A stretch of 64,000 nt of DNA from an uncultured Bacilli bacterium (GCA_934201705.1 CAKPXF010000001.1:66783-130782), one strand, 5' to 3'. Counted from the first letter of the stretch, positions 3,236-58,019 are shown. The notes: generated by a model not told the origin, from the sequence alone. A program made the numbers and translations.

Positions 3236-3251
3236 ATTTTTCTCCTTTTTC

Positions 3252-4124
3252 TTATTCTTTTACTCCACCTTCAAGACTTCCTTTAATAAAGAATTTTTGA
3301 AGAAGTGGATAAATTAGTATTATTGGAATTAAAGAAATGATAACTGCTGCACTTCTTAATCCTCCATAATTTAAATTAGTATCACCAAAATAAGCCTTTA
3401 AGAATTCATCACTATCCTCAATTCGACGAATAAAAGCTTGAATTGGCCATAACTGATAGTGGTTACTATCAATAAATAATGATGCTGCAAACCAATCGTT
3501 CCACATTGCAACAGATGTATATAGTGAAATAGTTGCAATAATTGGAAGATTTAATGGTAATACTACTTTAAATAAAACCTGTAAATTAGTTGCTCCATCA
3601 AGTTCTGCTGCTTCAATTAATGCTTCAGGAACTTGACTGAAAAATTTTCTGGCTAATAATATATACCAAGCACTTACACCACTTGGTAAAATCAAAGCCC
3701 ACAAAGTATTCATTAATCCAAGATTATTAATTAAGATATAATATGGGATTGTTCCCCCACTAAATAACATAGAAATAATGAAATAATATGTAAAGAACTT
3801 TTTGAATTGTAATTTTTTTCGAGTTAGCGCATAGGCGGCAAGTGAAGTTGTAAAAATCATTAGTACTGTAGTACAAATAACTACAAATAAAGAATTTAAA
3901 ATAGAAATTACAAATTGATTACTTTCCATGCTAAATATAGCTTTATAATACTCTAAAGAAAAATCTCTAATAATTAGGCTATATCCATATAGTGTTAAGG
4001 CTTTTGTCCCGGTAAATGAAGAGTTAATTAATAATAATATCGGAATGATAAAGATTAAAGCAAAGATAACCATGAATATAACATTACATACGCTGAATAT
4101 TTTTTCGCCTTTTGATTTAATCAT
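3252..4124 (-). CDS. Carbohydrate ABC transporter permease (LplC/YtcP-like)
   Basis: 290 aa with 6 predicted TM segments and an EAA-loop motif (EAAELDGATNLQVLFKVVLP) characteristic of the MalG/LplC family. Confidence 0.85.
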   Translation of the reverse strand: MIKSKGEKIFSVCNVIFMVIFALIFIIPILLLINSSFTGTKALTLYGYSLIIRDFSLEYYKAIFSMESNQFVISILNSLFVVICTTVLMIFTTSLAAYALTRKKLQFKKFFTYYFIISMLFSGGTIPYYILINNLGLMNTLWALILPSGVSAWYILLARKFFSQVPEALIEAAELDGATNLQVLFKVVLPLNLPIIATISLYTSVAMWNDWFAASLFIDSNHYQLWPIQAFIRRIEDSDEFLKAYFGDTNLNYGGLRSAAVIISLIPIILIYPLLQKFFIKGSLEGGVKE

Positions 4125-13234: not shown

Positions 13235-15592
13235 TTAAGCCTCCACTTCATAATACCCTTCTTTAAACAATTGATTTCTATAATATACATTTCCATTACT
13301 TGGTACAATAATTATTAGTTTATTAGCATTTATTTTAAAATGATAAATGCCAATGCATGTTAATACTTTACAATCAATGCTTATATTTTGATTATTAGGA
13401 TTTAAGTTAATTGAGCCATCATCATTAATATTTGCTCCCATTAATCCGCGAATCATAAATTCAGCAATAGGACTAAACATATGGTGATTTAAGGAATTTG
13501 TTAGCTCAAAATCCTCACACAGGGTAGTTTGATTATTATCTATCCAATATCTAAATGATGGATATTCTTTCCTTAATAATATTTTTAAACCAATATCAGT
13601 TCTATGGTTTTTAGCCAAGCTATCAAATACGTATTTGACACCTAAAATACCCATATGAATAGAAAAATCATTTTTTATTAAATAATTTACTATTTCATCA
13701 GTTTTATTAATAATATTAAAGTATGTTAAGCAAGCTAGTCCAGTTAAGCTAGTAACGTTACTATATTTATTAATAATAGCTTTTTTAATTTTATTTGCCA
13801 TGTCTAGATAATATTGCTCTTTATTATTATTTAATAATTTTGAAAATTTAGTTAAATATAAAGACATTTCCATAAAATAAGAGCTAGATATTAATGTTGT
13901 ATCACATACTTCAAACTTAACATTTTTAGGATAATTCCAATCACCAAGCCCAATAGAAACTAAATAATTATTAGAATTATTAATTAAATAATTATAATAT
14001 TTTTCAAGATGAGGATACATTTTTATTACTTCATCTTTATCACCATAATAGTAGTACATAGCATCAGTGATTCTAAACATAGCAACATCCCAAGCTGGAC
14101 CTGTGCCCCAGTTAAAACCCCACCCACACGTTGGAATAATACATGGAATTTGCCCACAAGGTCTTTGAGCAACCTTAAAATCATCAAGCCATTTTTTATA
14201 TGCTTGATGCATATTGAATGTATAAACTGATGTTTCTAATGATAATTGTGCATCTCCTGTCCACCCATTTTTTTCACGATGAGGACAATCTGTTGGAAAA
14301 TCCACATAGTTTGATTCAATGGCTTGAATAGACATATCATATAGCTTGTTTAATATTTCATTACTTGATTTAAAATAGCCCTCTTTAGTAAAGTTAGTTC
14401 TTATAAGATAAGCCTTAATATCTTTAACTTCTACATTGCCTTCAATTAAGACATAACGAAAGCCATGATAAGTAAATAAAGGCTTATATGTATCTATATT
14501 ATTAGATAAAATACAAGTATCTGTTTGATACTCTACATTTTCATTAAAAATATACATTGAATTAGAAGAATTATCTAAATGATTATCAACTAATCTATCA
14601 GAATAAATTATTTTTATAGTGCTACCCTTTTTTCCTAAAAAGGTAGCCTTACAATATCCTGCCATATTCTTTTTAAAATCATAGATTATTTTATTATCAA
14701 GTTTTTTAATAATAGCTGGAGCTATTTCTTCAACTTCACTAATTCCTTCAATATATGATGGCTTTAAAATACCACCAGCAGGAGTAGTAAGCGATACTAA
14801 ATGGTATTCTTTAACGGCATTAAAATCATGAGTTTCTCCAGTTCTTAAAGCATTGGAAGTAATTTCTCCATATGAATATTCCCAAGATTTGTCTGAGTAT
14901 ATCTTTTTACCATCAATATCAAGCTGGAATAATAGCTTAGCATTATCTCTCCAAGGGGCATGATTAAATCCCCAAGTATCTATAGTTGTTTGATTATACC
15001 AGCCATCACCAACTATTACTTCGATTTTGTTGATACCTTCTTTTAAGAATTTTTTAACATTATAGGTTGAATATAATACTAACTTATCATATTCACTAAA
15101 GGAAGGCTCTAATACTTTATTTCCAACCTTTTTGCCGTTTATTTTTAACTCAAATAAACCAAGGCCAACTAAATCAACAATAGCATATTTTTTTATTGCT
15201 TCAATATTTATTATTTTTTTAAAATATAAAGCTTTATTGCCAATTTCTTTTGTATCACTAACAAAATGAAAGCCATTAGATATCCATAAAGCATTATTAT
15301 CAAAGCCGTTTACTAAGCCTGAATAAAAATAGTTTTCATAAATAATAGACTTATTTATAGTAAGCGTATAATCATATCTTTCATGCTCTTTAAGTTTTAA
15401 ATTTACTTCAAGATATTGATTTTGACTATTTTGCTTTGTTTTAAAAACAATTTCATCATTGTTTTTAATTATTAATTCAACGCTTTCTTGCTTAATAACA
15501 TTTTCAAGGCGCCATGAAAAGTATAGATAATCTATAATGTTATATGGTATTAAAGAGCCATTTAATAAAACATTTGTTAGCTTACTTTCCAT
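13235..15592 (-). CDS. Alpha-L-rhamnosidase, glycoside hydrolase family 78
   Basis: 785 aa. Contains the GH78 catalytic-region signature DCPHREKNGWTGDAQL (DCPxRE.xGWxGD) and a typical length and domain layout. Confidence 0.75.
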   Translation of the reverse strand: MESKLTNVLLNGSLIPYNIIDYLYFSWRLENVIKQESVELIIKNNDEIVFKTKQNSQNQYLEVNLKLKEHERYDYTLTINKSIIYENYFYSGLVNGFDNNALWISNGFHFVSDTKEIGNKALYFKKIINIEAIKKYAIVDLVGLGLFELKINGKKVGNKVLEPSFSEYDKLVLYSTYNVKKFLKEGINKIEVIVGDGWYNQTTIDTWGFNHAPWRDNAKLLFQLDIDGKKIYSDKSWEYSYGEITSNALRTGETHDFNAVKEYHLVSLTTPAGGILKPSYIEGISEVEEIAPAIIKKLDNKIIYDFKKNMAGYCKATFLGKKGSTIKIIYSDRLVDNHLDNSSNSMYIFNENVEYQTDTCILSNNIDTYKPLFTYHGFRYVLIEGNVEVKDIKAYLIRTNFTKEGYFKSSNEILNKLYDMSIQAIESNYVDFPTDCPHREKNGWTGDAQLSLETSVYTFNMHQAYKKWLDDFKVAQRPCGQIPCIIPTCGWGFNWGTGPAWDVAMFRITDAMYYYYGDKDEVIKMYPHLEKYYNYLINNSNNYLVSIGLGDWNYPKNVKFEVCDTTLISSSYFMEMSLYLTKFSKLLNNNKEQYYLDMANKIKKAIINKYSNVTSLTGLACLTYFNIINKTDEIVNYLIKNDFSIHMGILGVKYVFDSLAKNHRTDIGLKILLRKEYPSFRYWIDNNQTTLCEDFELTNSLNHHMFSPIAEFMIRGLMGANINDDGSINLNPNNQNISIDCKVLTCIGIYHFKINANKLIIIVPSNGNVYYRNQLFKEGYYEVEA

Positions 15593-16484
15593 AATAGTCC
15601 TTATATCTTTTATATAGATTTCTTGCAGAAGGATAAATAGATTGTGGACTCATAAAATGAGAGAATTCAAATGTAATCATTTTAGAAACAATTGGTTTAA
15701 CAACGTTGATTTTGCTTTTTAAAACATTAAAATCAACAGGCATTAGACCATTTGGACTTTTATCAAACATTTCAATGTTTGCCCAAATTTCAATTCCTTG
15801 CTCATCCATTGCTTTTTTAGCTTGTTTAAAATACTCTGATCTTTGTTCATAAGGAGCTGATCCATCTTGAAAAGCACAAAAGTCAATATTGCCTTTTGAA
15901 TCTTTAAGGATTTCTTTCCATTCTTTATATGTTTCTTCTGGTGATAAAGGATGATCCTTATCAGCCCATTCACAATAAAAGAATGGTGAAAACATAACCT
16001 TTTTGTCAGGTGTTTTATCCTTGCACATTTTAGCAAGTGTATTTTGAAGATAAGCAATATTTAAAACGTTTGAGCCAACCTCATGTGGAATATACCAACC
16101 ATAAAAAGATTTATAATGGCCATACTTTTCACATACCTCATCAATTAATAATCTATTACATCTAATTTCTTCATCAGCGTCTCCTTCATTCCATGTAAGA
16201 TTTGAAATGTAAAGGCCAAATATTACCTTCATATTTCTTTTTTCACATTCTTTGAAGATAAAATCAGCAAAATCTGGATCATCTTCATTTAAATGTGGTA
16301 AAACCTTTGAAGGATAAATCATTTTTCCATTAAAGCCAGCACGAATTGTAATTACTGTATCAATTCCTACTTCTTTCATGTAATCTAAATCCTTTGCCCA
16401 TTGCTCATTATCCCAGTTAGATGATGGGATGTCGTATGTAATTTCGTCAATAAATGTTCCTGAAATTGGATAATTTTTATTCAT
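15582..16484 (-). CDS. DUF4434-family TIM-barrel protein (putative glycoside hydrolase)
   Basis: 300 aa. The N-terminal GTFIDEITYDIPSSNWDNEQWAKDLDYMKEVGIDTVI resembles the DUF4434 family. It sits in the glycan locus. Assigned from memory. Confidence 0.5.
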   Translation of the reverse strand: MNKNYPISGTFIDEITYDIPSSNWDNEQWAKDLDYMKEVGIDTVITIRAGFNGKMIYPSKVLPHLNEDDPDFADFIFKECEKRNMKVIFGLYISNLTWNEGDADEEIRCNRLLIDEVCEKYGHYKSFYGWYIPHEVGSNVLNIAYLQNTLAKMCKDKTPDKKVMFSPFFYCEWADKDHPLSPEETYKEWKEILKDSKGNIDFCAFQDGSAPYEQRSEYFKQAKKAMDEQGIEIWANIEMFDKSPNGLMPVDFNVLKSKINVVKPIVSKMITFEFSHFMSPQSIYPSARNLYKRYKDYYGK

Positions 16485-28091: not shown

Positions 28092-29036
28092 TTATTTCAA
28101 TAAATTATCTCCTTCTTTATTAATTATTTTTATAGCACTATCAATATTATTTAATATGCTATTTGGTAATTTATTATGCTCAATTTTGTTAATTGAGTAA
28201 GCACTTAGGTGTGCATGATTTTTAAATAAATCATCCTTAGATTTTATTTTATTATTAATGTTGTAGCATAAATAGGCATACTCATCAAATTCACCATTAT
28301 TTTCTTTAATAGGCTTTCTATAAACTAAATAATAAGTATTCATATCATCTTTATAAGTAACAATATCACCATAATCAAATAAAAATGGAATTTCTAAGCC
28401 AATTTCTTCATCAAATGGATAATATGGTTTCTTTTCACGTGGATCATTTTTTTGATAAAACCTTGTAGATTTATCTTCAATATCATTAAATCTTTTGACA
28501 TCCTTTAAAGCTATTTTAAATAATTTCTTTTCATATTTTGATTTAGTAAAATAGCTTAATTCTTTAAAAAGCAAATATTTATTTCCTTTTATAAAATTTG
28601 TTGCTAAGGTTGCCCATTGTTGTAAAGATAAGCTATCAGCATTGTCTTTAAGAATTTGTTTTATTTCCTTTGAATAGATATATTCAAGAATGATATCTTG
28701 TAAATCATCAAGCAATAATTCCTCATCATCGAAAACAAACTTTCTAATTAAAATATGTGCAATAATTTTATGCTTTGGATAGCTTCTAATTATTTTTATT
28801 GGAATTAATGAATATACAAGAGTGAGTAGATATAATAGAATAGTCAATATCCAAAAATATACATCAAAATGTAAAGTATTATGATTTAAAAAAATCGAAA
28901 TGCCTAAAGTAATACTACCAAGCATAAAGAAACAAATAGGCGCAGCAATCAAGGTATATTTTATCCAAGGTATATATTCTGCTTTAATTTTTCCATTAAA
29001 CCAATCTTTTTCCATTTTATCTCCTTTCTTATTCAA
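28092..29036 (-). CDS. Membrane protein of unknown function (3 N-terminal TM helices plus a ~200-aa cytoplasmic domain)
   Basis: 314-aa ORF with hydrophobic segments in residues ~25-100 and good coding periodicity. No recognisable motifs. Confidence 0.5.
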   Translation of the reverse strand: MNKKGDKMEKDWFNGKIKAEYIPWIKYTLIAAPICFFMLGSITLGISIFLNHNTLHFDVYFWILTILLYLLTLVYSLIPIKIIRSYPKHKIIAHILIRKFVFDDEELLLDDLQDIILEYIYSKEIKQILKDNADSLSLQQWATLATNFIKGNKYLLFKELSYFTKSKYEKKLFKIALKDVKRFNDIEDKSTRFYQKNDPREKKPYYPFDEEIGLEIPFLFDYGDIVTYKDDMNTYYLVYRKPIKENNGEFDEYAYLCYNINNKIKSKDDLFKNHAHLSAYSINKIEHNKLPNSILNNIDSAIKIINKEGDNLLK

Positions 29037-29162
29037 ATAATTTCTTTTGTGCTAGTAATTTTTTTACAAATATAAATAGCAATTTCAAGTTTCGTAAAAA
29101 TACTTTAATTATTTAAACACCAATTTTAATCGAACTATTTTTATCTATTAAAAATCATATAA

Positions 29163-29432
29163 CTATTTTACATTATTAATAATTCCTTTAATAAAAGAAC
29201 TTAATTCAATTTTTCCTTCATCTTTTTCAGAATCATTAAGTGCTTCATTTAATAAAAAAGCGGTTTGTAGCTTAGTAATAGTTTGTTCATATAATTCAAC
29301 ACTCATAATAATCATATCACTATAGCTGTTTTTAGTAATAATGATTGGAGAGTCATTCTCCTTACATATTTTTGAAATTTTTGCTGTATTTTTAAGTTCT
29401 TTAATTGGTAGTATTTTTGGTAATATTTGCAT
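29163..29432 (-). CDS. Phd/YefM-family type II antitoxin-like protein (orphan; no cognate toxin gene adjacent)
   Basis: The Phd/YefM pattern is recognisable: PIKELKNTAKISKICKENDSPIIITKNSYSDMIIMSVELYEQTITKLQTAFLLNEAL. The start is taken at the internal Met (MQILPK). Confidence 0.55.
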   Translation of the reverse strand: MQILPKILPIKELKNTAKISKICKENDSPIIITKNSYSDMIIMSVELYEQTITKLQTAFLLNEALNDSEKDEGKIELSSFIKGIINNVK

Positions 29433-29641
29433 AATATCCTTCTTGTATTTTATTGTGTCGTTTCTATGAAACAATTATATCATAGGCTTAGTAAAAATGA
29501 ATAGTAAAAAATCTTTGATACAAAATCGGAGATAATGAAAGAAATTAATCCTCATCAATTTTGTTTTCATGCTTTTGTTAATATAAATCGATAGTTTTCT
29601 AGTTCATCCTTATTCATGCTTACATTTTTTCTAGAAGATTG

Positions 29642-30988
29642 TTATTTCAAAACTTCCCAATAACCATTTTTGTTTGAACCAACTCTTCTAAGTAATTCTT
29701 TTCCTTTCAATGATTTTATGATTCTATCAATTGTTCGGCTTGAAAGACCAGTTTGTTTGATAACTTCATCTTTTATTGCAGTTTTATTGTTTTTAAAAAC
29801 TGTTAAAACAGAAAATTCTTCTTCAGATAATTCGCCATTTATTTCGCCATTTATTTCGCCATTTATTTCGCCAACTTTATTTCTATCCATTCTAGAAAAT
29901 TCAATTGTAAAATCATTTTCATTATTAATGTATGAAATGTCTACTTTAGCTTCTTTGCACAAACGATATACCTTTTTCAATCCATGTCCACATGTTTCAA
30001 CATCTTTGCAAAGATATAATACATCGGCAATCGATTAATTCCTTAAATACGATTTTAAATCTCTATAAAAAAAATCATTTGGGGTATAATCATTAGCAAA
30101 TGAACCTGGATTAATAATCGCTATTCTATTTGAATAAATATCTATCTCATGTTGAACATTTCCATCGTATCTTGCATGAGCAAAACTATTAATGATAACT
30201 TCACGCAAAGCGACTAGAGGAATTTCTGGGATTTCTTTTCTTTGTGGTGATGCACCATCAATAATCACTTTCCATCTTATATTTTTTATTACAAAATCCA
30301 TTGCTTCATCGATTAATTCAAAAATATTGCCTTTAATTGTTTTCATGTCTAAAATTGTAACTCTTTCACTTGTAGCAAATACGACCAATTTTAAAGTAAT
30401 TGGATTAGTATTTCCAAAAAGCATTACACCAGCATTTGTTAAAAAACCATTTCTAAGTAAATTATGTTTAATCAACAATGTCTCTTTATCAAATTCAATT
30501 TTTGGCAATCTACCACACTCTGTCGCGTTTTCATAAAATTTCAACAAGCACTCTTCTTTAACATCAGCAGCAGTATATGAAGTTAATTTGTCACACCAAT
30601 TTTCTTCATATTCTTTTGAAATCATCATTTTTCTAAGTTCACTTGGTGTTAATTCTCTATCCTCATCCGCAATTCTTATATAATATCTTCCGAATGCTTA
30701 ATATGGAGTATCATTTCCAGAAAAATCGACCTTTATAACATCAATCCCATCAATTGATACAATTTCAATTTTTGGGAAAATTTGAGGTTTGATTGCTTCA
30801 TAAATTTTTCTAGAAATATCTCTTAAAGTGGAGTCGTTAATTTCAAATTTAAATGGAGTTCCATCATTTCTGATTCCGAAAAAAAGTTCTCCAGGCTGAT
30901 GTTTGTTTAATATACTTACGATGGATACAATGCCTTCAGTTATTTCTCTTGTTGTTTCCTTAAATTTTCTTGTTTCGTTTTCAACCAT
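29642..30988 (-). pseudogene. Disrupted gene for an AlbA_2 (Schlafen-like) / HATPase_c_4 / C-terminal wHTH transcriptional regulator, split into three ORF fragments
   Basis: The 30698..30988 fragment has the AlbA_2-like N-terminal domain and 30035..30628 the ATPase-like middle domain (EIPLVALREVIINSFAHARYD). The 29642..29980 fragment has the C-terminal winged-HTH (LSSRTIDRIIKSLKGKELLRRVGSNKNGYWEVL). Fragments are in different frames or separated by stops. Confidence 0.6.
29831..29870. repeat. 12-bp tandem repeat (ttcgccatttat x ~3.3) inside the pseudogene, encoding (EING)n
   Basis: Direct reading: ttcgccattt atttcgccat ttatttcgcc atttatttcg cc. Minus-strand translation gives GEINGEINGEINGE. 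Confidence 0.85.
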
Positions 30989-31169
30989 AAATCAATCCTC
31001 TAACTGTATTAATTATGTGAATTTTGACGAAATAAATCAATAATATGGCGAAATATTTTTTAATGACGCATTATTTTTCATGGGTCAAAAATTAATATGA
31101 ATTAAGCTCTCATAAAAATTAAAAAAAGTTTGACACATTTTATTGTGTCAAACTAATTGCTTCAATAAT

Positions 31170-31253
31170 GTAAGCGGTAATAGCATAGTAGCAATGTTAG
31201 CCCCTACTTATAATCGTGTAAAATTTTAGCATCATTTGTATTAAATCGTGTAA
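31170..31253. repeat. Left copy of a ~45-bp imperfect direct repeat (att-like) flanking a ~3-kb island
   Basis: gtaagcgGtAAtagcatagtagcaaTgttagc...aatcgtgtaaaa matches 34209..34256 (gtaagcgCtGGtagcatagtagcaaGgttagcattaaatcgtgtaaaa). An extra partial copy attaaatcgtgtaa follows. Confidence 0.6.
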
Positions 31254-31296
31254 TTTATTCGCATCTTTTAGCACCTTGTTTTTTAAAGGTTCATTA

Positions 31297-31629
31297 TTAA
31301 TCCAATTCACGAAGTTGGTCAGATATTAAATCATTTAATTCAAACGAACCATCATTTAAAATATTGAGTCTGTCCTTGATTTTGGTAATTAACTCTTTTA
31401 ATTCATTGAGATGTTCTTTCGCAATTATAGTATTAAATCTACAAGCTTCATCCTCATCAAATTCATAGAATGAACTATACAATGCAGAAGCTTTTTCATT
31501 CAAATCATTTAGTTCAAAATCGTTATCAATAATGTCAATTCCAGTAACCAATTTATTTTTACTAGTACTAAATACATCTTTAACAATTGGTCCAATTAAA
31601 AAATCTAATTCCAACTTTATTATTTTCAT
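31297..31629 (-). CDS. Small acidic protein, putative immunity protein for the upstream toxin-like gene
   Basis: 110 aa, acidic, no TM segments. It lies immediately downstream (3-nt gap) of the toxin-like ORF, the typical toxin-immunity arrangement. Confidence 0.45.
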   Translation of the reverse strand: MKIIKLELDFLIGPIVKDVFSTSKNKLVTGIDIIDNDFELNDLNEKASALYSSFYEFDEDEACRFNTIIAKEHLNELKELITKIKDRLNILNDGSFELNDLISDQLRELD

Positions 31630-31631
31630 TT

Positions 31632-32117
31632 TTACTTACCTCCATCTATTGGGTACATTGAAACAATATAACCATTGGTTCCTATGGCACCAAGTGTATA
31701 ATACTTTCCTTTGTATAAATATATTTTTTCAAGTCCCATTTTGCCATTGCTTAGAATTTTCTCTTGAGAATGAACAACAACACCATATTTTATCACATTT
31801 CTTAGGTGGCAAACTAAGTGTTTTTCTTGAATGTTGTGCTTCCTTATAAAGTCATTAGTATGTTTTTTAATGTGTTCTAATCCTTTAGTTGCATTTCCGT
31901 TTTCAAGCCATACAACTTGTCCGTTTTTATCTTTAGCAGTAAAAACAACATTTTTAGGACTAATCTTTACACCACTTTTTAGTAGTTCAGCAAGTAATGG
32001 GGCTTTGCTTATGAGGTCACTTTTTTCGTTTTGAAGATTAATTTGTCCACCTTTTGTTCCAAGTCCATTCCCTTTTGAACCATTACTATATTTACTACCT
32101 TGTCCCATATATCGCAT
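31632..32117 (-). CDS. Toxin-like C-terminal domain protein with a Gly-rich pre-toxin linker (orphan polymorphic-toxin module; family not recognised)
   Basis: The ORF begins without an N-terminal delivery domain and has a Gly-rich stretch (GQGSKYSNGSKGNGLGTKGG) followed by a ~150-aa His/Lys-rich domain (LEHIKKHTNDFIRKH...HLVCHLRN). It is followed by a small acidic ORF. The start is uncertain (internal Met used). Confidence 0.4.
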   Translation of the reverse strand: MRYMGQGSKYSNGSKGNGLGTKGGQINLQNEKSDLISKAPLLAELLKSGVKISPKNVVFTAKDKNGQVVWLENGNATKGLEHIKKHTNDFIRKHNIQEKHLVCHLRNVIKYGVVVHSQEKILSNGKMGLEKIYLYKGKYYTLGAIGTNGYIVSMYPIDGGK

Positions 32118-32826
32118 CCTCCTTCTTATACATGTCAATCTTAGAATGAGGAATGATAATCTTAATTCCCTTAGATTTTGCATATCCAAAGATTTCATCA
32201 AAATTAGATTCGGTAACAAAACCATAAACTAATATTGTCTTAGGCTCTATTCTATCAACAGCTTCTTTAAGTCCATCTAAGAACATTTTCTTATTTTCTT
32301 TGTCTTTAATTTGACCCAAGATACTGATTGCGATATTAGAACCTTTCATTATTCCATCAAAAGCAAACTCATAACTAAAATCAAAAGTCCATCAAATATT
32401 TGGAATAATGATTGCATTTGTATTGTCTTTCAACCAAGCCATACATATTCTTGATTTATAAATATTAAACATTTGTAATGGAACTGGAAAATCACCATAA
32501 AGTGAATAATCAGGGCCAATTATATATTTAATATTTTTAAATCTTTCACGGAACAATATTAATCTCTTTTCATCTTGGTAGATGATTGAATTAAAAAGTC
32601 CGTGAATTCCATCGAATACATGGTCATACTGATAAAAACAAACGCATGTATTGTTAGTTTTTTGATAATCCTGTAAGTCTGAATACAATGATAAATAATC
32701 TATTTTACTTATATCATCAAAACAACCATTTATAGGCATATCATAATCACCTTCAAAAGAAAGTGATTCAAGCAAATAAACACCAAAGATGTCTTTAAAA
32801 CCATTCCTTACATTATATCTTGCCAT
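32095..32826 (-). pseudogene. Frameshifted gene, hypothetical protein (possibly DUF4417-like), split into 144-aa and 84-aa ORFs
   Basis: Two consecutive minus-strand ORFs (32392..32826 and 32095..32349) sit in different frames with a ~40-nt gap. Together they give ~228 aa and contain a GPDYSLYGDFP motif. Confidence 0.35.
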
Positions 32827-32967
32827 ATACTGCCTCCACTAAATGAAGGAGTTGGCAAACAAATGCAAGAAACAAATTTTAAAAAAAATAAATAATTTTA
32901 TGTGCATTGTTGCACCTCCTGTTCTTAATTTTTTTAGTCTTTCTAACGAGAAAAGCTCATTGAAGAC

Positions 32968-32997
32968 TTGATATTTTTAAGACAGTTGTGCTATAAT
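32968..32997 (+). promoter_or_regulatory. Sigma-A-type promoter (TTGATA, 18 nt, TATAAT with upstream TG)
   Basis: cTTGATAtttttaagacagttgTGcTATAATg drives a ~70-nt transcript that ends at the terminator at 33037..33072. Confidence 0.5.
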
Positions 32998-33024
32998 GTG
33001 TTTACTTAAGGTGGCATCATAGCA

Positions 33025-33057
33025 TGCTGTCTAGACGACTCAAACCACTGCAATGAT
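33025..33057 (+). CDS. Putative 10-codon micro-ORF (MLSRRLKPLQ) with a strong RBS, within a short promoter-terminator unit
   Basis: AAGGTGG RBS, 9-nt spacer, then ATG CTG TCT AGA CGA CTC AAA CCA CTG CAA TGA. The ORF overlaps the terminator stem. Coordinates are approximate. Confidence 0.25.
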
Positions 33058-33072
33058 TTGGGTCTTTTTTAT
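33037..33072 (+). terminator. Rho-independent terminator (GACUCAAA / UUUGGGUC stem followed by U6)
   Basis: 8-bp stem with one G-U pair and a 12-nt loop, followed by ttttttatttc. Confidence 0.55.
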
Positions 33073-33091
33073 TTCAATTAAGATGATTATA

Positions 33092-33661
33092 TTATTCTGA
33101 TTTAACTACCCATCTTAAAAAATATTTAGTTTGTTCATTAGAACTATCTGTTCTACTTACAACTTGTTTAAATGTATAATTTTTGCATTTTTCGTAAGGA
33201 ATCATTATCTCCCCACATAATGACATAGCTTGCCATTCCATACTTTTATATCGTGGCAATTCTTTATCTTTTAGACTTCTTGCATACACTAGTCCATTTT
33301 CACCTTTATATAATACTGGACCAGCATCAAATATATGAATCAAGATAAAATGACACATTTCATGACAAATAATTCCTAGACTAGCCCTATCACCATTTAC
33401 TGCTTTTTCATATACTTTTTCACGTATTTTAATACAATAAAGATCGTTGCCTTCTGGAACTAATTCTGCCATTACATTTGTCTCAAATTCATCATTTGGC
33501 AAAATACGATAATAAAGATTATTAGAAAATTTATCTATTAACTTTTCAAGTGCTTTTAAAACAGGAAATTTAACAGTCTTAATTTTTAACAATCTTCTAG
33601 CAAATTTAGATATTTCCCTTATCTGCATTCTACTCAAAGGTAATCTTGATTCATAATCCAT
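33092..33661 (-). CDS. ImmA/IrrE-family metallopeptidase (DUF955; HEXXH zinc protease), mobile-element anti-repressor type
   Basis: 189 aa containing HEMCHFILIH (HExxH) in a DUF955-like context. It is co-directional with and overlaps the end of the upstream XRE repressor gene. Confidence 0.7.
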   Translation of the reverse strand: MDYESRLPLSRMQIREISKFARRLLKIKTVKFPVLKALEKLIDKFSNNLYYRILPNDEFETNVMAELVPEGNDLYCIKIREKVYEKAVNGDRASLGIICHEMCHFILIHIFDAGPVLYKGENGLVYARSLKDKELPRYKSMEWQAMSLCGEIMIPYEKCKNYTFKQVVSRTDSSNEQTKYFLRWVVKSE

Positions 33662-34020
33662 TACTTGTCCTCCTTTAAAATATTGAAGATAAATTGAATT
33701 TCATCTTCATCTAATTCAGGAAGTTTTCTTTGAAATTGTACCGCCAACTTCTTTTGAGTTAACGGAACATTCTCTACATCAATTCTGACACTCTTCTTAT
33801 CTTCACAATATGCATTATAAAGTTCCTCATATTTTGAGTCAGTTAGATCATAATGTTTAGATAATTCATCCACCCAATTATCTGGTACACTTTTACCACC
33901 TGTTAAAACAGCAGAAACAAAAGACGTAGTTACGCCTAATAATTGAGCAATTGATAATAAGTTTTCATCATGGTCAATCATTTCTTTTCTAACTATTTTT
34001 CCGAATTTTGTGTATCCCAT
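33661..34020 (-). CDS. XRE-family HTH transcriptional repressor (ImmR-like)
   Basis: 119 aa. N-terminal HTH (LLSIAQLLGVTTSFVSAVLTGGKSVP). Paired with the ImmA-like gene, as in ICE/prophage immunity modules. Confidence 0.65.
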   Translation of the reverse strand: MGYTKFGKIVRKEMIDHDENLLSIAQLLGVTTSFVSAVLTGGKSVPDNWVDELSKHYDLTDSKYEELYNAYCEDKKSVRIDVENVPLTQKKLAVQFQRKLPELDEDEIQFIFNILKEDK

Positions 34021-34208
34021 ATTTTCGCTCCTTATGTAATCATTATTTTTGACGTCATTTTCTTAGATTACAACAATAGTATACACCTCATATATTATAT
34101 TGTCAACATCTTAGAAATAAAATTAACCATCAGGTTGATTAAATGGTGTTTCCTTTTTACTTTTTCTAAAAAAATTAAGATGAAAAGAAAAAACATCACG
34201 TTTGTAAC

Positions 34209-34256
34209 GTAAGCGCTGGTAGCATAGTAGCAAGGTTAGCATTAAATCGTGTAAAA
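34209..34256. repeat. Right copy of the ~45-bp imperfect direct repeat (att-like)
   Basis: See 31170..31253. 27/31 nt are identical in the core, plus a shared attaaatcgtgtaaaa tail. Confidence 0.6.
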
Positions 34257-34421
34257 GCAAAATAAAAAGTTGCTAATAGGGCCTCTAAATGAAGCTTACT
34301 AACGGCTTGCTAAACTAATAAAATTCTATTTTTGAAGTGAAATATCGTATTTTAAACGTCTTTTTTGCTATTTATGCAAAAAAAAGCCTGATAGCATTGT
34401 ATCAGACCTATTCTACTATTA

Positions 34422-34498
34422 TGGGGCGGATAATGGGGTTCGAACCCACGAATGACCGGTTCACAGCCGGTTGTGTTAACCACTTCACCATATCCGCC
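34422..34498 (-). tRNA. tRNA-His (anticodon GUG), with encoded G-1 and CCA
   Basis: Minus strand: G-GCGGATA...anticodon loop CUGUGAA...GGTTCGAACCC...TATCCGC-C-CCA. The acceptor stem is 7 bp, G-1 pairs with C73, and the T-loop is TTCGAAC. Confidence 0.8.
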
Positions 34499-34714: not shown

Positions 34715-35227
34715 TTATTTAACTATTCCACAATTACCAATAAAGCTATCAAAAAGCTTACTATCATTTGATATTTTCATTAAAAAGCAACGAATAACTG
34801 TTCCATGAGAAACAATTAAAGTGGTATTATTTTTATTATCAGTAGCAATTTTAAAAATAGCATTATATATTCTATTTGTAAATCCATCAATACTTTCACC
34901 ACCATATTTTACAAAATAATCTCCATATGGAAAAGTTGGATTATATTTATTTGGCTTTGATTCTTTAATACCAAGTGATATTTCTTTTAAATCATCGCAC
35001 TCAATAAATGGTGCTTTGTCAGTTACTAATTTTGTTGTATCACATGCTTTTTTTAATGATGAGCTATATATAGCATCAAATTTAATATTATTTTCTTTAA
35101 AAAAGCTTTGAGCCTTAAGAGCTTGCTTTATTCCTTTTTCTGTTAGTGGAGAATCACATTGCCCTTGATTGACATTCATTAAATTAAATAAAGTTTCACC
35201 ATGCCTCATTAAATAAATTGTTTCCAT
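34715..35227 (-). CDS. Histidine phosphatase family protein (phosphoglycerate mutase-like)
   Basis: N-terminal RHG motif (YLMRHGETLFN), 170 aa. Confidence 0.65.
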   Translation of the reverse strand: METIYLMRHGETLFNLMNVNQGQCDSPLTEKGIKQALKAQSFFKENNIKFDAIYSSSLKKACDTTKLVTDKAPFIECDDLKEISLGIKESKPNKYNPTFPYGDYFVKYGGESIDGFTNRIYNAIFKIATDNKNNTTLIVSHGTVIRCFLMKISNDSKLFDSFIGNCGIVK

Positions 35228-45785: not shown

Positions 45786-45815
45786 AAGTGTTCAAAATCT
45801 GAACACTTTTTAACA
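45786..45815. terminator. Bidirectional hairpin terminator between ligA (+) and the HTH-TM regulator gene (-)
   Basis: aaagtgttc-aaaatct-gaacacttt flanked by A and T tracts. Confidence 0.6.
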
Positions 45816-47120
45816 TCAGTATAGGTATATTTTACTATCACCATATGGATTTTTTCCATTTTCCTTTCTAGTTAATGAATAAGCATATCCATCAATTACC
45901 TCTAGTTCAATAATGCTAACATTTTTATACTCAGGGAATGAAATCTTCGTTTCTTTTTCATTAGCAATTGTAACAGTAAGATTTGATTTTACTAAGGTAT
46001 TATTTGCATCTATATAAGAAAATGATATTCTTGCTAAAATATAATATTTTACAAAATAAAAACCATTCTTGTAGCTTATAGTAATGCCATTTTCCTTTTC
46101 ATTTAAAGAAAATCGTTCAAAAAATGTTTTTTTATCAATGCTATTTTTAACTATTTCATATGAATCAGAAGCCATATAGTAATTATCATTATCATAATTA
46201 ATGGTTTCATTATCATATTTTTCGCTAAATTTATTGTGCAAGCTTGTATCCTTATAAATGCTTAAAATGAAATTTCCATAGGCTTCTTTTTTTTCACCAT
46301 TTTTAGTGGTAAAGAAAACTAAAGGGTTAGTGTGTTCACTACTTATATAGCTAATACTTAAAATATAAGGATCTAACGATGTGTATAAATCTCTATTAAC
46401 ATTTAATGGCTTAAAGAAGTAAAACACATAGCTTTCCATAATACCGTCATTAATTTCTTTATATGATTCCTTTTCATCATAGCTTATTAAATATTTATTA
46501 TCACATTTTGTTTTAATTCCAGTATCTTCGTTATAATAATTAGCTTCAGGATACTTACATGGATAATATATATTAGTTATATATGGATTATTATTTAAAT
46601 AGTTAAATATTCTAGTAGCATATTGCTCAAAGGATTCTATATTATCAATAGTTGTTATATAATCCTCATCATCGTTATCATAATAAACATCATATTCCTT
46701 AGCGTTTAGCTTTTTATTAACTCTTGGCATATCTACTAATCCAATGTTCTTTAAATATTTCTCATTGAAATAGCCATTTTCTGTTATAATATTTTGCATT
46801 CTTTTATTATAAATTTGTAAGCAAATACAAGATGATAAAAGCATTATTGCAATAGATGAAATAATAATTATTAAAATAGTTTTTAATCTATTTATTTTAC
46901 GATTTTCCTTAATGTTTTTCTCAAGATCGTTGTAACTAAATAAATTATTTTCATCAATATTGAAAAGATTACAAATATCTTGTAATGATTCTTTATTTGG
47001 AATTCCCCTTCCTTGCTCCCATTTTGCAACTGCTGATCTTGAAATAGAAAGCTTTGAAGCAAGTTCATCTTGAGTTAAATTGGCATTTATGCGTAGCTCT
47101 TTTAATCTATCACAAAACAT
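45816..47120 (-). CDS. Membrane-tethered XRE-family transcriptional regulator: N-terminal HTH, single TM, ~320-aa extracytoplasmic domain
   Basis: The HTH_3 region is LKELRINANLTQDELASKLSISRSAVAKWEQGRGIPNKESLQDICNLFNID. The TM segment is LKTILIIIISSIAIMLLSSCICLQIY. A Tyr/Asn/Asp-rich C-terminal domain follows. Confidence 0.7.
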   Translation of the reverse strand: MFCDRLKELRINANLTQDELASKLSISRSAVAKWEQGRGIPNKESLQDICNLFNIDENNLFSYNDLEKNIKENRKINRLKTILIIIISSIAIMLLSSCICLQIYNKRMQNIITENGYFNEKYLKNIGLVDMPRVNKKLNAKEYDVYYDNDDEDYITTIDNIESFEQYATRIFNYLNNNPYITNIYYPCKYPEANYYNEDTGIKTKCDNKYLISYDEKESYKEINDGIMESYVFYFFKPLNVNRDLYTSLDPYILSISYISSEHTNPLVFFTTKNGEKKEAYGNFILSIYKDTSLHNKFSEKYDNETINYDNDNYYMASDSYEIVKNSIDKKTFFERFSLNEKENGITISYKNGFYFVKYYILARISFSYIDANNTLVKSNLTVTIANEKETKISFPEYKNVSIIELEVIDGYAYSLTRKENGKNPYGDSKIYLY

Positions 47121-47139
47121 ATAAATTTACTCCATTATG

Positions 47140-50866: not shown

Positions 50867-50942
50867 GTAAACTTTTATTTACTAATTGAGATAAAATAAG
50901 TATAATCTTAATAGATACAACTTTTTTTGAGGAGGAATTTTC

Positions 50943-52352
50943 ATGGAAGAAAGAAAATTAAAATTAAATTTTAAGAATACCTTTAAAATTGGCTTTGCTT
51001 TTTTTGGAATTTTAATGCTTTGGCAGGTTTATAATACCTATTGCCCTATTATATTAGAGGCAATGCTAAAGGATAGGGGCTTAACAAACTATCATTATAT
51101 TGTTGGTATTATTATGGCTCTTGATAATGTAGCAGCTATAATTGTTATGCCTTTAGTTGGAAAGATGTCTGATAAAACCAAAACAAAATGGGGTAAACGA
51201 ATGCCTTATATTGTAATAGGAATGCTATTAACAACGATTGTTTTCCCATTTATTGCCTTAATGTGTTATTTTAACATTTTTGTAGGGGTAATTATATTTA
51301 TGCTTTTATTCTTAATTATTATGCAAGCATATCGTTCACCAGCTGTTGCTTTTATGCCAGACGTTACACCAAAGCCTTTAAGAAGTACTGCTAATGGTAT
51401 TATTAATCTAGTTGGATATTTAGGTGGAGTATTTGCAACAATAATAGGAATGCTACCATTTTTAAAGCTAAACGATAGCTCATCACTTGCTGAAATACAA
51501 AGTAAAATTATTTGGCCATTTATTATCACAACAATTGTTTTTGTTTTAGTACTTATTTTCTTAATATTTAGAGTTAATGAAAATAAGCTAGTTGAAGAAA
51601 CAAAAGATGATGTTGCATATGGTGAAACATTAGCTGATACTGAAGAGGCTATTAAAGATGATAATAAATTATCAAAATCTGATTTTAGAAACTTTATTTT
51701 AATTTTAATTGCTATTTTCTTCTGGTTTATGGCTTTTAATTCCTTTGAAACATTTGGTAGCTTATTCTTTAAAGATATTGTAAAGGACTCAACAATTTAT
51801 TCAACAATGGCTATGGTATTATCTGTTGTTTCAATATTATCATTTGTATTATTCTCAACATTATCTAATAAAATTGGTCGAAAGCTTACTATTGTAATAG
51901 GTTTAGTATTGTTAATAGTAGCTTTAGTAACTACTGCTATTTTATCAATAGTTATTAATGATTTTTCAAATACTAATGATGTTGCTACTGGCTATAAGCT
52001 ATTATTTATTGTAATTGCTGCTATTATGGGTGTTGGTTGGGCATTAGTTAATATTAATTCATTCCCTATGGTTGTTGAATTTTCAAATAAGGATAATATT
52101 GGTAAGTTTACAAGCTATTATTATATGTCTTCAATGCTAGCACAATCAATTACTCCAATTCTTGTTGGCTTCTTTATGGACTATTTAGGAATTGGTAAAA
52201 AGATCTTATTTATTTATGCAGCTATTATGATGATAATTGCTCTTGTAGTATTTATTTTTATTAAAGAAAAAATTAGCCTTTCTAAACGTAAAGAAATGGC
52301 TAAGGATGAAAAGAAAAAATCAGTTCTTGAAAGAATTGGCGATAATGATTAA
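50943..52352 (+). CDS. MFS transporter
   Basis: 469 aa with ~12 TM helices and an MFS-like motif (PLVGKMSDKTKTKWGKRMPYIV) in loop 2-3. Confidence 0.75.
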   Translation: MEERKLKLNFKNTFKIGFAFFGILMLWQVYNTYCPIILEAMLKDRGLTNYHYIVGIIMALDNVAAIIVMPLVGKMSDKTKTKWGKRMPYIVIGMLLTTIVFPFIALMCYFNIFVGVIIFMLLFLIIMQAYRSPAVAFMPDVTPKPLRSTANGIINLVGYLGGVFATIIGMLPFLKLNDSSSLAEIQSKIIWPFIITTIVFVLVLIFLIFRVNENKLVEETKDDVAYGETLADTEEAIKDDNKLSKSDFRNFILILIAIFFWFMAFNSFETFGSLFFKDIVKDSTIYSTMAMVLSVVSILSFVLFSTLSNKIGRKLTIVIGLVLLIVALVTTAILSIVINDFSNTNDVATGYKLLFIVIAAIMGVGWALVNINSFPMVVEFSNKDNIGKFTSYYYMSSMLAQSITPILVGFFMDYLGIGKKILFIYAAIMMIIALVVFIFIKEKISLSKRKEMAKDEKKKSVLERIGDND

Positions 52353-56948: not shown

Positions 56949-57881
56949 TTATATTATTTTATCAAGAGTTTGTTTAATTTCTACTTCAAGTTTTTTAATT
57001 TCTTGTTTTAAACATTCAAAATCGTTTGCACTACTAACAATGAGATGCCTATCCATGATTTGTTCAAATTCAACAAATTTTTTTGATATAAATGAATATT
57101 TAGAAGTAATTTGATTACAAATTCTATTTTCATCAGTTAAATAAAATGCAATATACATTCCATATTTTCTAATCAGACTACATATAAAAGCACAATAATC
57201 TTCATTTACAAGGTTAATACTATCATTAACTACTAAGTCATAATATTCAATATACTGGTGCCCACAGGCAGATGATTTGCCAAAATTTTCAATATTAAAT
57301 GTGTGATTTGTAATATTATATTCGATTATTCCACAACTTTGGTTTTCTAAAGCACCTTGAGAAAATACTAAATGTAAAATATTCTTATGAATAGCAATTT
57401 TTAATAAAATAATATCCATAACAGGTAGATTTTTTAATAATAATAATTCTTTTGTTTTTATATTATAAATATATGATTTGTTTCTTTTTACTTTATAAAA
57501 TAAAATATACTCATTATAATTATAATAATCAAAATTTTCTGAGATATTGCTTTGATTTATTATTTCACATTTTAAATAATCTACCACAACTATTTTTTTA
57601 TTCTTAAATGCAAATAATAAATTATCATAAACTACAGCTGAGTAAACTGCACATATTTTAAAAAAGTTAACATGATTATCTTTTATAATTTCAATACCTT
57701 TTTCATAATCAAATACTATTAAGCAGTTATTACAATAAATTGGTTTTATAACATCATCAATAATGTCTTTAAAATTTGTATCATAATTTAAAATCAATTG
57801 ATTGTTACCATATAATGAAAATCTTTTATTACACACCTCATATGCCAATACTGTTTTGTCGACATTAATAAAATATTTCAT
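56949..57881 (-). CDS. Hypothetical protein (310 aa), putative immunity protein of the cassette array
   Basis: The ORF lies immediately downstream of a truncated toxin stub (58020..58100) in the same orientation. No recognisable motifs. Confidence 0.45.
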   Translation of the reverse strand: MKYFINVDKTVLAYEVCNKRFSLYGNNQLILNYDTNFKDIIDDVIKPIYCNNCLIVFDYEKGIEIIKDNHVNFFKICAVYSAVVYDNLLFAFKNKKIVVVDYLKCEIINQSNISENFDYYNYNEYILFYKVKRNKSYIYNIKTKELLLLKNLPVMDIILLKIAIHKNILHLVFSQGALENQSCGIIEYNITNHTFNIENFGKSSACGHQYIEYYDLVVNDSINLVNEDYCAFICSLIRKYGMYIAFYLTDENRICNQITSKYSFISKKFVEFEQIMDRHLIVSSANDFECLKQEIKKLEVEIKQTLDKII

Positions 57882-58019
57882 ATTGTTTTCCCCTCCATAC
57901 TTATTATAAACTATATATCCATGTCATAAATTAATTTCATAATTTTTTTTGCATGTTCCCAAGCATTTTTATCATTTACTTGCCCTGAATCTAAAATTTT
58001 TTAACATGATTTTATCTAA

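Follow-up and report, generated by a model that had tools for sequence, protein, structure and literature searches.

We analysed a stretch of 64,000 nt from an uncultured Bacilli bacterium (hereafter the window, with positions counted from its first letter), in which a five-gene cassette lies directly downstream of a tRNA-His gene and belongs to an insertion of 3.25 kb that is present in some strains of the species and absent from others. The window comes from a 307-kb contig of a gut bacterium whose genome has ~28% G+C, and relatives of the organism carry the labels of Bacilli, Mollicutes or Firmicutes metagenome-assembled genomes. All five cassette genes are on the minus strand, as is tRNA-His, and they encode a helix-turn-helix (HTH) protein, a metallopeptidase, a DUF4417 protein, a predicted RNase toxin and a candidate immunity protein (Table 1). 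A sequence-only reading of the window had described this locus as a decayed integrative and conjugative element (ICE) or prophage-like remnant bracketed by 45-bp imperfect direct repeats, and its claims are taken up below together with the results that bear upon them. Comparison loci and contigs from related genomes are given L-numbers (L088, L112, L115 and so on), which are not to be confused with the left repeat, called L.

Table 1. Features of the cassette locus in the window, and of comparison loci where so indicated
Feature	Position	Strand	Description and basis
tRNA-His (GTG)	34422-34497	-	ARAGORN and Rfam; its encoded CCA end (34422) forms the proximal insertion junction
Strain-variable insertion	31169-34421 (3,253 bp)	-	flanks of empty-site locus L088 align to 34421 and from 31170 (blastn)
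Left-end trailer	34378-34421	-	TAATAG, ~10 nt, terminator hairpin 34409-34384, T-run; terminator scan
Right repeat R	34209-34256	-	minus strand TTTTACACGATT..GCTAAC CTT GCTACT AT GCTACC AGC GCTTAC; iteron-like
Operator-like palindrome and promoter of the HTH operon	34078-34140	-	AACC-N5-GGTT; TTGACA-17-TATACT; promoter scan
HTH protein, putative repressor (ImmR/CapH-like)	33661-34020	-	119 aa; weak Pfam HTH_31 and PHROG 'transcriptional repressor'
HExxH metallopeptidase (ImmA/IrrE/CapP-like)	33092-33661	-	189 aa; motif, fold, tblastn
Antisense unit (predicted)	32968-33071	+	promoter TTGATA-18-TATAAT (32968-32997); ~65-nt RNA to terminator 33037-33071
Opposing promoter	33043-33016	-	faces the plus-strand promoter; promoter scan
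Hydrophobic mini-ORF (open reading frame)	32839-32907	-	22 aa (MHIKLFIFFKICFLHLFANSFI), own strong ribosome-binding site, just upstream of DUF4417; from sequence and alignment
DUF4417 gene, TIM-barrel fold	32095-32826	-	243 codons; Pfam PF14386; nonsense-interrupted
BECR-fold RNase toxin (predicted), PBECR1/CdiA-CT-like	31632-32108	-	158 aa; overlaps the end of DUF4417
Candidate immunity gene	31297-31629	-	110 aa; assigned from position
Left repeat L	31170-31253	-	two TTACACGATT boxes and GCTAAC/GCTACT/GCTATT/GCTTAC iterons; end 1 nt short of the distal junction
Native-side trailer and terminator hairpin (31154-31127)	31121-31168	-	z score -3.75; shared with the empty site
~70-nt trailer/hairpin (AGTTTGACA..TGTCAAACT)	window 31099-31171; L088 6731-6800; L112 3521-3591		single copy in the 64-kb window
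Two intact large serine recombinases in tandem	L117 8527-11287		Resolvase, Recombinase, Zn_ribbon_recom; convergent just after the cassette
Same recombinase genes, damaged, plus DUF3987 gene	L116 8411-12504

The two regulatory genes overlap at 33661, with the HTH gene directly upstream of the peptidase gene, and this pairing was kept in all relatives, in agreement with the ImmR/ImmA-type pair that had been proposed. In the peptidase, the residues H100-E101-H104, E142, E151 and P155 were invariant across 44 homologues. Its AlphaFold2 model (pLDDT 90.6) gave CapP (7t5t) as the best Foldseek match in the PDB (prob 1.0, E 5.5e-3, TM-score 0.49, 10% identity), and tblastn matched phage genes with an ImmA/IrrE annotation (E 4e-4). 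Pfam yielded no match to Peptidase_M78 (PF06114 / COG2856) at E<=0.01, with weak SprT-like similarity only, and a sequence-profile search against the PDB found no solved relative.

The third gene matched Pfam PF14386 with E 4.9e-36 (124 bits; gathering threshold 28.9). What had been read as a frameshifted gene is indeed disrupted, but by a single CGA (Arg) to TGA nonsense change at codon 145 (32392-32394), within the conserved motif IPN[IV]R, and not by a frameshift. The same TGA was found in three other occupied loci, with the gene translated in L084 and L085 and called as a split gene in L083, and DUF4417 of L112 carries a different and independent nonsense codon. Neither a Trp meaning of TGA (code 4) nor recoding of DUF4417 was accepted, since the window uses the standard genetic code, with 145 TGG codons and little gain in ORF length under code 4, and since the aligned residue is Arg. 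The AlphaFold2 model of DUF4417 (pLDDT 86) was a TIM barrel resembling tRNA-guanine transglycosylase (TGT), and this fold led us to reject a DDE- or recombinase-like protein; a sequence-profile search against the PDB gave no match, and relatives carry the PHROG 940 label 'nuclease'. The modelled fold would be a first structural lead for DUF4417, pointing to the tRNA/DNA-guanine transglycosylases, although the protein differs from ArcTGT (1iq8), TGT (3unt) and DpdA (7ui4) in having ~240 aa instead of >370, no zinc subdomain that could be seen, and 8-11% identity.

The two last genes agreed with the toxin/immunity pair of the sequence-only reading. In the toxin family, 15 of the 22 members matched Pfam PBECR1, the window protein alone giving no match, and the family profile matched PDB 7m5f_C, 'Toxin CdiA', at E 1.2e-20; the small gene downstream co-varies with the toxin gene among relatives. 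The toxin is free-standing, with ~150 aa and a Gly-rich N-terminus, and has no delivery domain of the CdiA filament, MuF, LXG or Rhs kinds. For none of the five cassette proteins was there a matching model in PADLOC-DB 2.0 (E<=0.1) or NCBIfam.

The intergenic DNA of the cassette contains further conserved signals. The operator-like palindrome reads TTAACC-N5-GGTTAA in relatives and is kept upstream of the -35 element in the family members examined. The spacer of 265 nt between the peptidase and DUF4417 genes holds the tiny promoter-terminator unit that had been noticed before, and which is real: its sequence was conserved across cassettes with proteins only 59% identical, being the most conserved DNA of the cassette family, and in L098 and L118 the changes in its terminator stem are compensatory. 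The two face-to-face promoters are enclosed by an inverted repeat, AGACAG..GCTAT/ATAGC..CTGTCT. The hydrophobic mini-ORF was confined to the window/L112 subtype.

The boundaries of the island were obtained by comparison within the species, using a set of 23 contigs from an exact-protein look-up with the MntP gene of the left flank. At least 15 of these carried an empty-site allele (L088 type plus L091), and L083, L084, L085 and L090 carried a near-identical island, so that the predicted strain-variable indel was found, with a precise border at the tRNA. The empty-site order was His_Phos, tRNA-His, an intact 444-aa AlbA_2/HATPase_c_4 gene, Phd, a 307-aa gene and MntP, with zero island genes and with a tRNA-His gene identical to that of the window in both L088 and L091. 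After the tRNA CCA, the empty site continues with TTAAAAAAGCATT (13 nt) and then a terminator hairpin, AGTTTGACA..TGTCAAACT. The flanks of the indel were 99.1% and 98.6% identical to the empty-site locus (blastn), and its junctions are ambiguous by a 3-nt CAT microhomology. The insertion begins at the first base 3' of the tRNA-His CCA, and its left end supplies a new terminator for tRNA-His. A circle formed by excision of all 3.25 kb would carry ...CCGCTTACA joined to TAATAGTAGAATAGG, and precise excision would leave tRNA-His-CCA joined to TTATTGAAGC on the occupied haplotype. A scan of GTDB species representatives with the neighbouring YmdB gene gave a nearest relative at 67% identity, without synteny, from which no empty site was obtainable.

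Occupied and empty alleles diverged by 2-7% over ~3.3 kb on the AlbA_2 side of the island and by 1.6-3% over ~1 kb on the tRNA side, and by 0-0.4% farther out. The polymorphism therefore rides on an old, diverged haplotype block that is swapped by homologous recombination.

The cassette is not unique to this species. Homologues of the peptidase were found at 47-93% identity in protein searches and down to 31% in a metagenome scan, and the gene order was constant, with HTH, peptidase, DUF4417 and two small variable proteins, read directly down to 35% identity in L187. A further 15 or more contexts had the same architecture, and no cassette contained a recombinase. The last two slots co-vary, and hold, among other pairs, DUF6883 (BECR toxin) with DUF4926 in L093 and a Cys_rich_CPCC immunity gene in L098 and L106; DUF6883/DUF4926 has been described as a toxin-immunity pair (bioRxiv 10.64898/2026.08.28.747851). 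In at least eight contexts (the window, L112, L093, L098, L103, L187, L188 and L205) the cassette stands alone between housekeeping genes, and contigs of 3.2-3.4 kb consisting of the cassette only were also found (L085, L109-L111), as would be expected if assemblies break at a repeated unit. Because a recombinase-free unit of five genes is conserved down to 31% identity, we regard it as a functional module and not as debris of random decay. Neither the repeat nor the peptidase gave a match in scans of viral contigs, and a DNA search of phage GenBank was negative as well.

Two observations among the relatives may be added here. In L205 (6622-7994), and also in L206, L207 and L210, a second, partial cassette follows the full one, with an N-terminal fragment of DUF4417 and a different toxin/immunity pair, resembling the orphan modules of contact-dependent inhibition (CDI) and Rhs loci. 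L187 (GenBank MT835546.1, 'UNVERIFIED Bacteriophage sp.') has its five-gene cassette amid housekeeping-type genes, PSP1-like and holB-like by ORF reading, and looks like a bacterial chromosome and not a phage.

The direct repeats that had marked out the island were confirmed to exist, but did not turn out to be its edges. In a repeat search of the window, 31166-31201 paired with 34205-34240 over 36 nt at 86% identity, plus a common AATCGTGTAA box, which occurs three times in the window against 0.08 expected; the 22-nt repeat core was found twice in the 64 kb and never in 100 shuffles. Read on the coding strand, R (34256->34209) and L (31253->31170) have the same layout, with TTACACGATT, then four GCTWAC-like hexamers spaced at 8-9 nt, and a CGCTTAC end, and L has an extra internal TTACACGATT box that R does not have. 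R lies 165 nt from tRNA-His, close to the ~170 bp given before. Both repeats and all five genes are inside the inserted DNA, which reaches 165 nt past R. The single repeat copy expected in an empty site was not there, as neither L088 nor L091 had any match to the repeat core. Since the indel runs past R to the tRNA CCA, the repeats are not an attachment (att) site duplication, and R and L are not a duplication of the chromosomal target.

With regards to what R and L may be instead, a sister element with a peptidase 90% identical to that of the window but in another genomic context (L115) was informative. Homologues of both repeats bracket its core, that of R at 320-356 with an identical 15-mer, GCTACCAGCGCTTAC, and that of L at 3215-3300 with the same two-box layout, and for this reason the repeats, judged by sequence, are a conserved end feature of one sub-lineage and not chance. 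The repeats were absent from L112, from L118 and from LE_A-type elements, the latter being the subfamily whose left end begins TTAGAGTTAAG; flanking repeats as a family-wide trait were rejected (none in L093, L098, L103, L112, L109 or L111). Homology of the gene core with other subfamilies begins at 34210, the inner edge of R, and at the other end homology to L112 stops at 31274, ~20 nt short of L, near the hairpin 3' of the immunity gene. A dispersed intergenic motif was likewise rejected, since the window has just two copies and unrelated loci have none, as were a tRNA fragment (no tRNA-like match by ARAGORN or Rfam, the latter finding two tRNAs and nothing else over 27-37 kb of the window) and integron-type attC hairpin sites, since R and L are unstructured as single-stranded DNA (z +1.0 and +1.3). 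The distal end ...CTATTACCGCTTACA had ~8-11 matches over 16-17 positions to the 3' end of tRNA-His. R and L are best read as putative protein-binding sequences, arm-like or iteron, at both ends of the unit, and in a form with joined ends they would flank the crossover point. Alternatively, they could be the right ends of two stacked elements, with the tRNA-proximal one shrunk to ~215 bp.

These results bear directly upon the explanation of the locus as a decayed ICE or prophage, with the repeats as attL and attR and a tyrosine integrase deleted from beside immA. A repressor-peptidase pair as found here is typical of ICEs and phage lysogeny modules, the direct repeats do bracket the genes next to a tRNA, and L115 shows the same arrangement. 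The lack of an integrase or excisionase that had been noted was confirmed, as none was seen in the segment or in ~10-14 kb on each side (Pfam and a crude motif scan), no integrase or remnant thereof was detected among the five island products in Pfam, PHROG or NCBIfam, and neither tblastn with the L117 recombinases nor a crude motif scan for tyrosine recombinases found anything in the window. However, the slot beside the peptidase gene, where an integrase was expected, is filled by DUF4417 in every family member, as far down as ~35% identity, and no tyrosine recombinase was seen in more than 20 cassette contexts, the recombinases of relatives being serine-type and located beyond the immunity gene. 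Together with the empty site, and with the repeats missing from the closest other subfamilies, this makes such an origin quite unlikely. Of the decayed integrated element, what holds is that it is tRNA-associated, acquired and free of recombinase, whereas the att sites, the type of recombinase, the boundaries and random decay do not.

The association with tRNA genes was also seen among the relatives. In the clade of >=85% identity, nearly every copy with enough upstream DNA closely followed a tRNA gene whose orientation it shared. At least eight different tRNA genes are involved. The cassette abuts the CCA of seven tRNAs, namely His (window), Trp (L112), Pro-TGG (L106), Glu-CTC (L107, L110), Leu-CAA (L114), Leu-GAG (L116) and Phe (L117), and at an eighth, Arg-ACG (L118), the element starts 43 nt downstream. 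Left ends homologous to that of the window directly followed the CCA of other tRNAs in L112, L106, L107, L114, L116 and L117, five different tRNAs have one and the same left end, TTAGAGTTAAGTACAGTCAATACC..., after their CCA, and left ends are built alike, with TTA or TAA, ~10 nt, a hairpin and then a T-run. The same left end is found in L198-L201 after ...ATGCTTACCTTACACA, the L-like end of another island, an arrangement that suggests that ends stack in tandem. More distant members adjoin tRNA-Arg-CCT (L163), tRNA-Pro-GGG (L166) or a partial tRNA 3' half (L123), and many members of the 50-73% clade are not beside tRNAs. In L118 a cassette of 3.1 kb without recombinase lies between 43-nt direct repeats of tRNA trailer plus terminator, with 95% identity. 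When left-end and right-flank trailers were compared as diverged att copies, the similarity was significant for L118 (43 nt) and marginal for L112 (1/500 shuffles); for the window it was not significant (53/500 shuffles), and such copies were rejected there.

A non-mobile defence or toxin-antitoxin cassette, residing in variable hot spots and moved by homologous recombination of its flanks, with the repeats as regulatory iterons, would agree with the diverged haplotype block, with accessory neighbours such as the AlbA_2/Schlafen-like ATPase and the Phd antitoxin, and with the many family members away from tRNAs. An identical left end after the CCA of five tRNA genes is, however, impossible by flank homology, the 43-nt direct repeats of L118 derive from the target, and the many contigs of 3.2-3.4 kb end at the cassette borders as would those of a repeated mobile unit. 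We hence consider this explanation highly improbable.

A recombinase from elsewhere would be needed to bring the cassette to tRNA ends, as none is encoded in it, and candidates were found among the relatives. In L117 and L116 the cassette is followed by genes for large serine recombinases, intact in the former and damaged in the latter; the two loci share 5.65 kb and are found at two different tRNAs. The cassette-recombinase junction is common to L108 and L109, L108 having recombinase remnants, and L199 retains a stub of the recombinase only. These sequences indicate that at least one subfamily travels with serine recombinases.

The window copy could be either a trans-mobilised unit or the leftover of a larger serine-recombinase element. 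According to the latter explanation, the cassette was the tRNA-proximal end module of an integrative element with two large serine recombinases, and DNA between the hairpin 3' of the immunity gene and a point near the far end would have been deleted, so that the cassette and the L arm remained. This is suggested by the cassettes followed by convergent recombinase genes and a DUF3987 gene (L116, L117, L108, L109), by the same junction at two tRNAs and at a third site (L199), and by breakpoints that recur in the loop of the large-loop hairpin 3' of the immunity gene, at ~31275 in the window and inside the loop in L106 and L111, L118 diverging just after the complete hairpin. It is opposed by the contexts with the cassette alone between housekeeping genes and by L118, with its direct repeats and no recombinase, as serine recombinases do not leave long direct repeats; we find it possible, though rather unlikely.

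DUF4417 itself might also be thought of as the mobility protein, with a TGT-like protein in the 'int' position recognising tRNA genes or tRNA and inserting the element at CCA ends in a non-canonical manner. DUF4417 is the conserved third gene and has an unbroken frame in the subfamily that occupies five tRNAs, independent nonsense codons occur in two single-site lineages, and both the relation of its fold to tRNA/DNA-guanine transglycosylases and the PHROG label could be taken in support. Against this, many cassettes with intact DUF4417 are away from tRNAs, the recombinase-linked copies explain the pattern more simply, the correlation comes from very few lineages, and we know of no recombinase with a TIM-barrel/TGT fold. 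Such a role is very improbable indeed.

Taking all findings together, we lean, with somewhat more than even confidence, towards the locus being a discrete and acquired 3.25-kb cassette island at tRNA-His, belonging to a conserved family, with a stress switch, mobility supplied from outside and arm-like repeats at its ends. In this scheme the HTH protein would repress the operon at the palindrome and at the switch formed by the face-to-face promoters and the antisense RNA. By analogy with CapH/CapP pairs, which regulate immune operons upon DNA damage (bioRxiv 10.1101/2022.04.27.489752; 10.64898/2026.05.16.725639), a stress or DNA-damage-type signal would activate the ImmA/CapP-like peptidase, which would then cleave the repressor. 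Loss of the repressor would switch on DUF4417, the BECR-fold toxin and the immunity protein, giving a stress-inducible toxin/immunity module that could serve in addiction, defence or competition. The transfer of the cassette to tRNA 3' ends would have been site-directed and would have depended on functions provided externally, and the copy of this species would be immobile, with its presence or absence spread by homologous recombination of the haplotype block.

Several points weigh against that interpretation. Two diverged alleles leave the indel unpolarised between insertion and deletion. The ~70-nt trailer/hairpin of the empty site is moreover near-identical to DNA that another organism has 3' of its tRNA-Trp cassette (L112), so that the empty site may itself be the scar of an earlier element, and such trailers may be footprints of this cassette family. 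The multi-tRNA left ends come from the subfamily that is linked to serine recombinases, and what looks like integrase-less targeting may be recombinase in cis in intact elements. The switch-toxin function is likely but derives from homology and gene order only, the peptidase having no M78 match and a moderate fold match (TM-score 0.49). Since a delivery domain is missing from the toxin, nothing distinguishes addiction from abortive infection or competition, and with no PADLOC or NCBIfam match the defence role is a guess. A bolder proposal goes further still, in that these would be small integrative elements that recognise the generic tRNA 3' end (CCA plus trailer/terminator) through a multi-target serine-recombinase helper or through their own DUF4417, coupling a protein with a tRNA-binding fold and a tRNase-type toxin under a DNA-damage-type switch; we hold this to be distinctly unlikely.

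In comparison with known systems, the cassette shows likeness to several. In ICEBs1 of Bacillus subtilis, immR-immA-int forms the regulatory and integration module. The window likewise has an HTH repressor, an overlapping HExxH anti-repressor peptidase and a third gene in one operon on the 3' side of a tRNA, but its third gene is DUF4417 instead of a tyrosine integrase, xis and conjugation genes are missing, the island is 3.25 kb and follows the CCA without duplication of the tRNA 3' end, and the peptidase falls below Pfam Peptidase_M78. Tycheposons, satellites and cis-mobilizable elements (CIMEs) are tRNA-targeting islands and integrase-less derivatives that are flanked by att sites. The island resembles these in being strain-variable, located at a tRNA 3' end with a new terminator and signs of end-stacking, and without recombinase in the window copy; it differs in that its junction follows the CCA with no duplicated tRNA segment, one type occurs at five or more tRNAs, the empty site lacks the bracketing repeats and the recombinases of relatives are serine-type. 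With CapH/CapP (bioRxiv 10.1101/2022.04.27.489752; PDB 7t5t) the cassette shares an HTH protein plus metallopeptidase upstream of a potentially toxic operon, but the cargo is DUF4417, BECR toxin and immunity instead of CBASS (antiphage signalling based on cyclic oligonucleotides), the regulators are co-directional with the cargo, and there is the extra unit of antisense RNA and face-to-face promoters. The BECR pairs, including PBECR1 of polyvalent phage proteins (PMC5512222), CdiA-CT/CdiI (PDB 7m5f) and DUF6883/DUF4926, resemble the window pair in the family match, the small immunity gene coming next and the swapped slot, and differ from it through the free-standing toxin with its Gly-rich N-terminus and no delivery domain.

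The cassette thus represents a widespread five-gene system of uncultured gut Bacilli that is unnamed as a system by Pfam, PHROGs, NCBIfam and PADLOC. Finding one element type at the CCA of many tRNA genes is unusual, as bacterial islands normally use one tRNA by means of a sequence-specific integrase. The locus also provides a caution, since conspicuous direct repeats need not be att sites and the true borders came only from the empty-site comparison.

Some observations were also made on the neighbouring genes. The gene at 29642-30988 (minus strand), encoding an AlbA_2/Schlafen-like protein with HATPase_c_4 and winged HTH domains, is intact with 444 aa in empty-site strains, and in the window it carries the nonsense changes TCA to TAA (30698-30700) and CAA to TAA (30035-30037) as well as a 12-nt in-frame insertion of a GEIN repeat; other occupied strains have an additional frameshift. 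This gene gave weak PADLOC matches to Argonaute-associated and CARF-type models. The His_Phos_1 gene (34715-35227, minus strand) encodes 170 aa against 189 aa in empty-site strains, with a 4-nt insertion near 34725 leading to an early stop. At 28092-29474 (minus strand) a Phd/YefM-type antitoxin gene (29163-29474) with no recognisable toxin partner is followed by a gene for an uncharacterised membrane-like protein of 307/314 aa, both being within the diverged haplotype block. In L087 (Logan ERR7738585) a 900-aa FtsX-domain gene takes the place of YmdB before an identical UDG gene, which could reflect a rearranged strain or a mis-join, and the same sample yields a cassette-only contig. Elsewhere in the window, long frames cross a single in-frame TGA under code 4 at 50895-52352, 13235-15718, 45810-47126 and 56949-57968, and these could be adjacent genes or further nonsense-interrupted genes.

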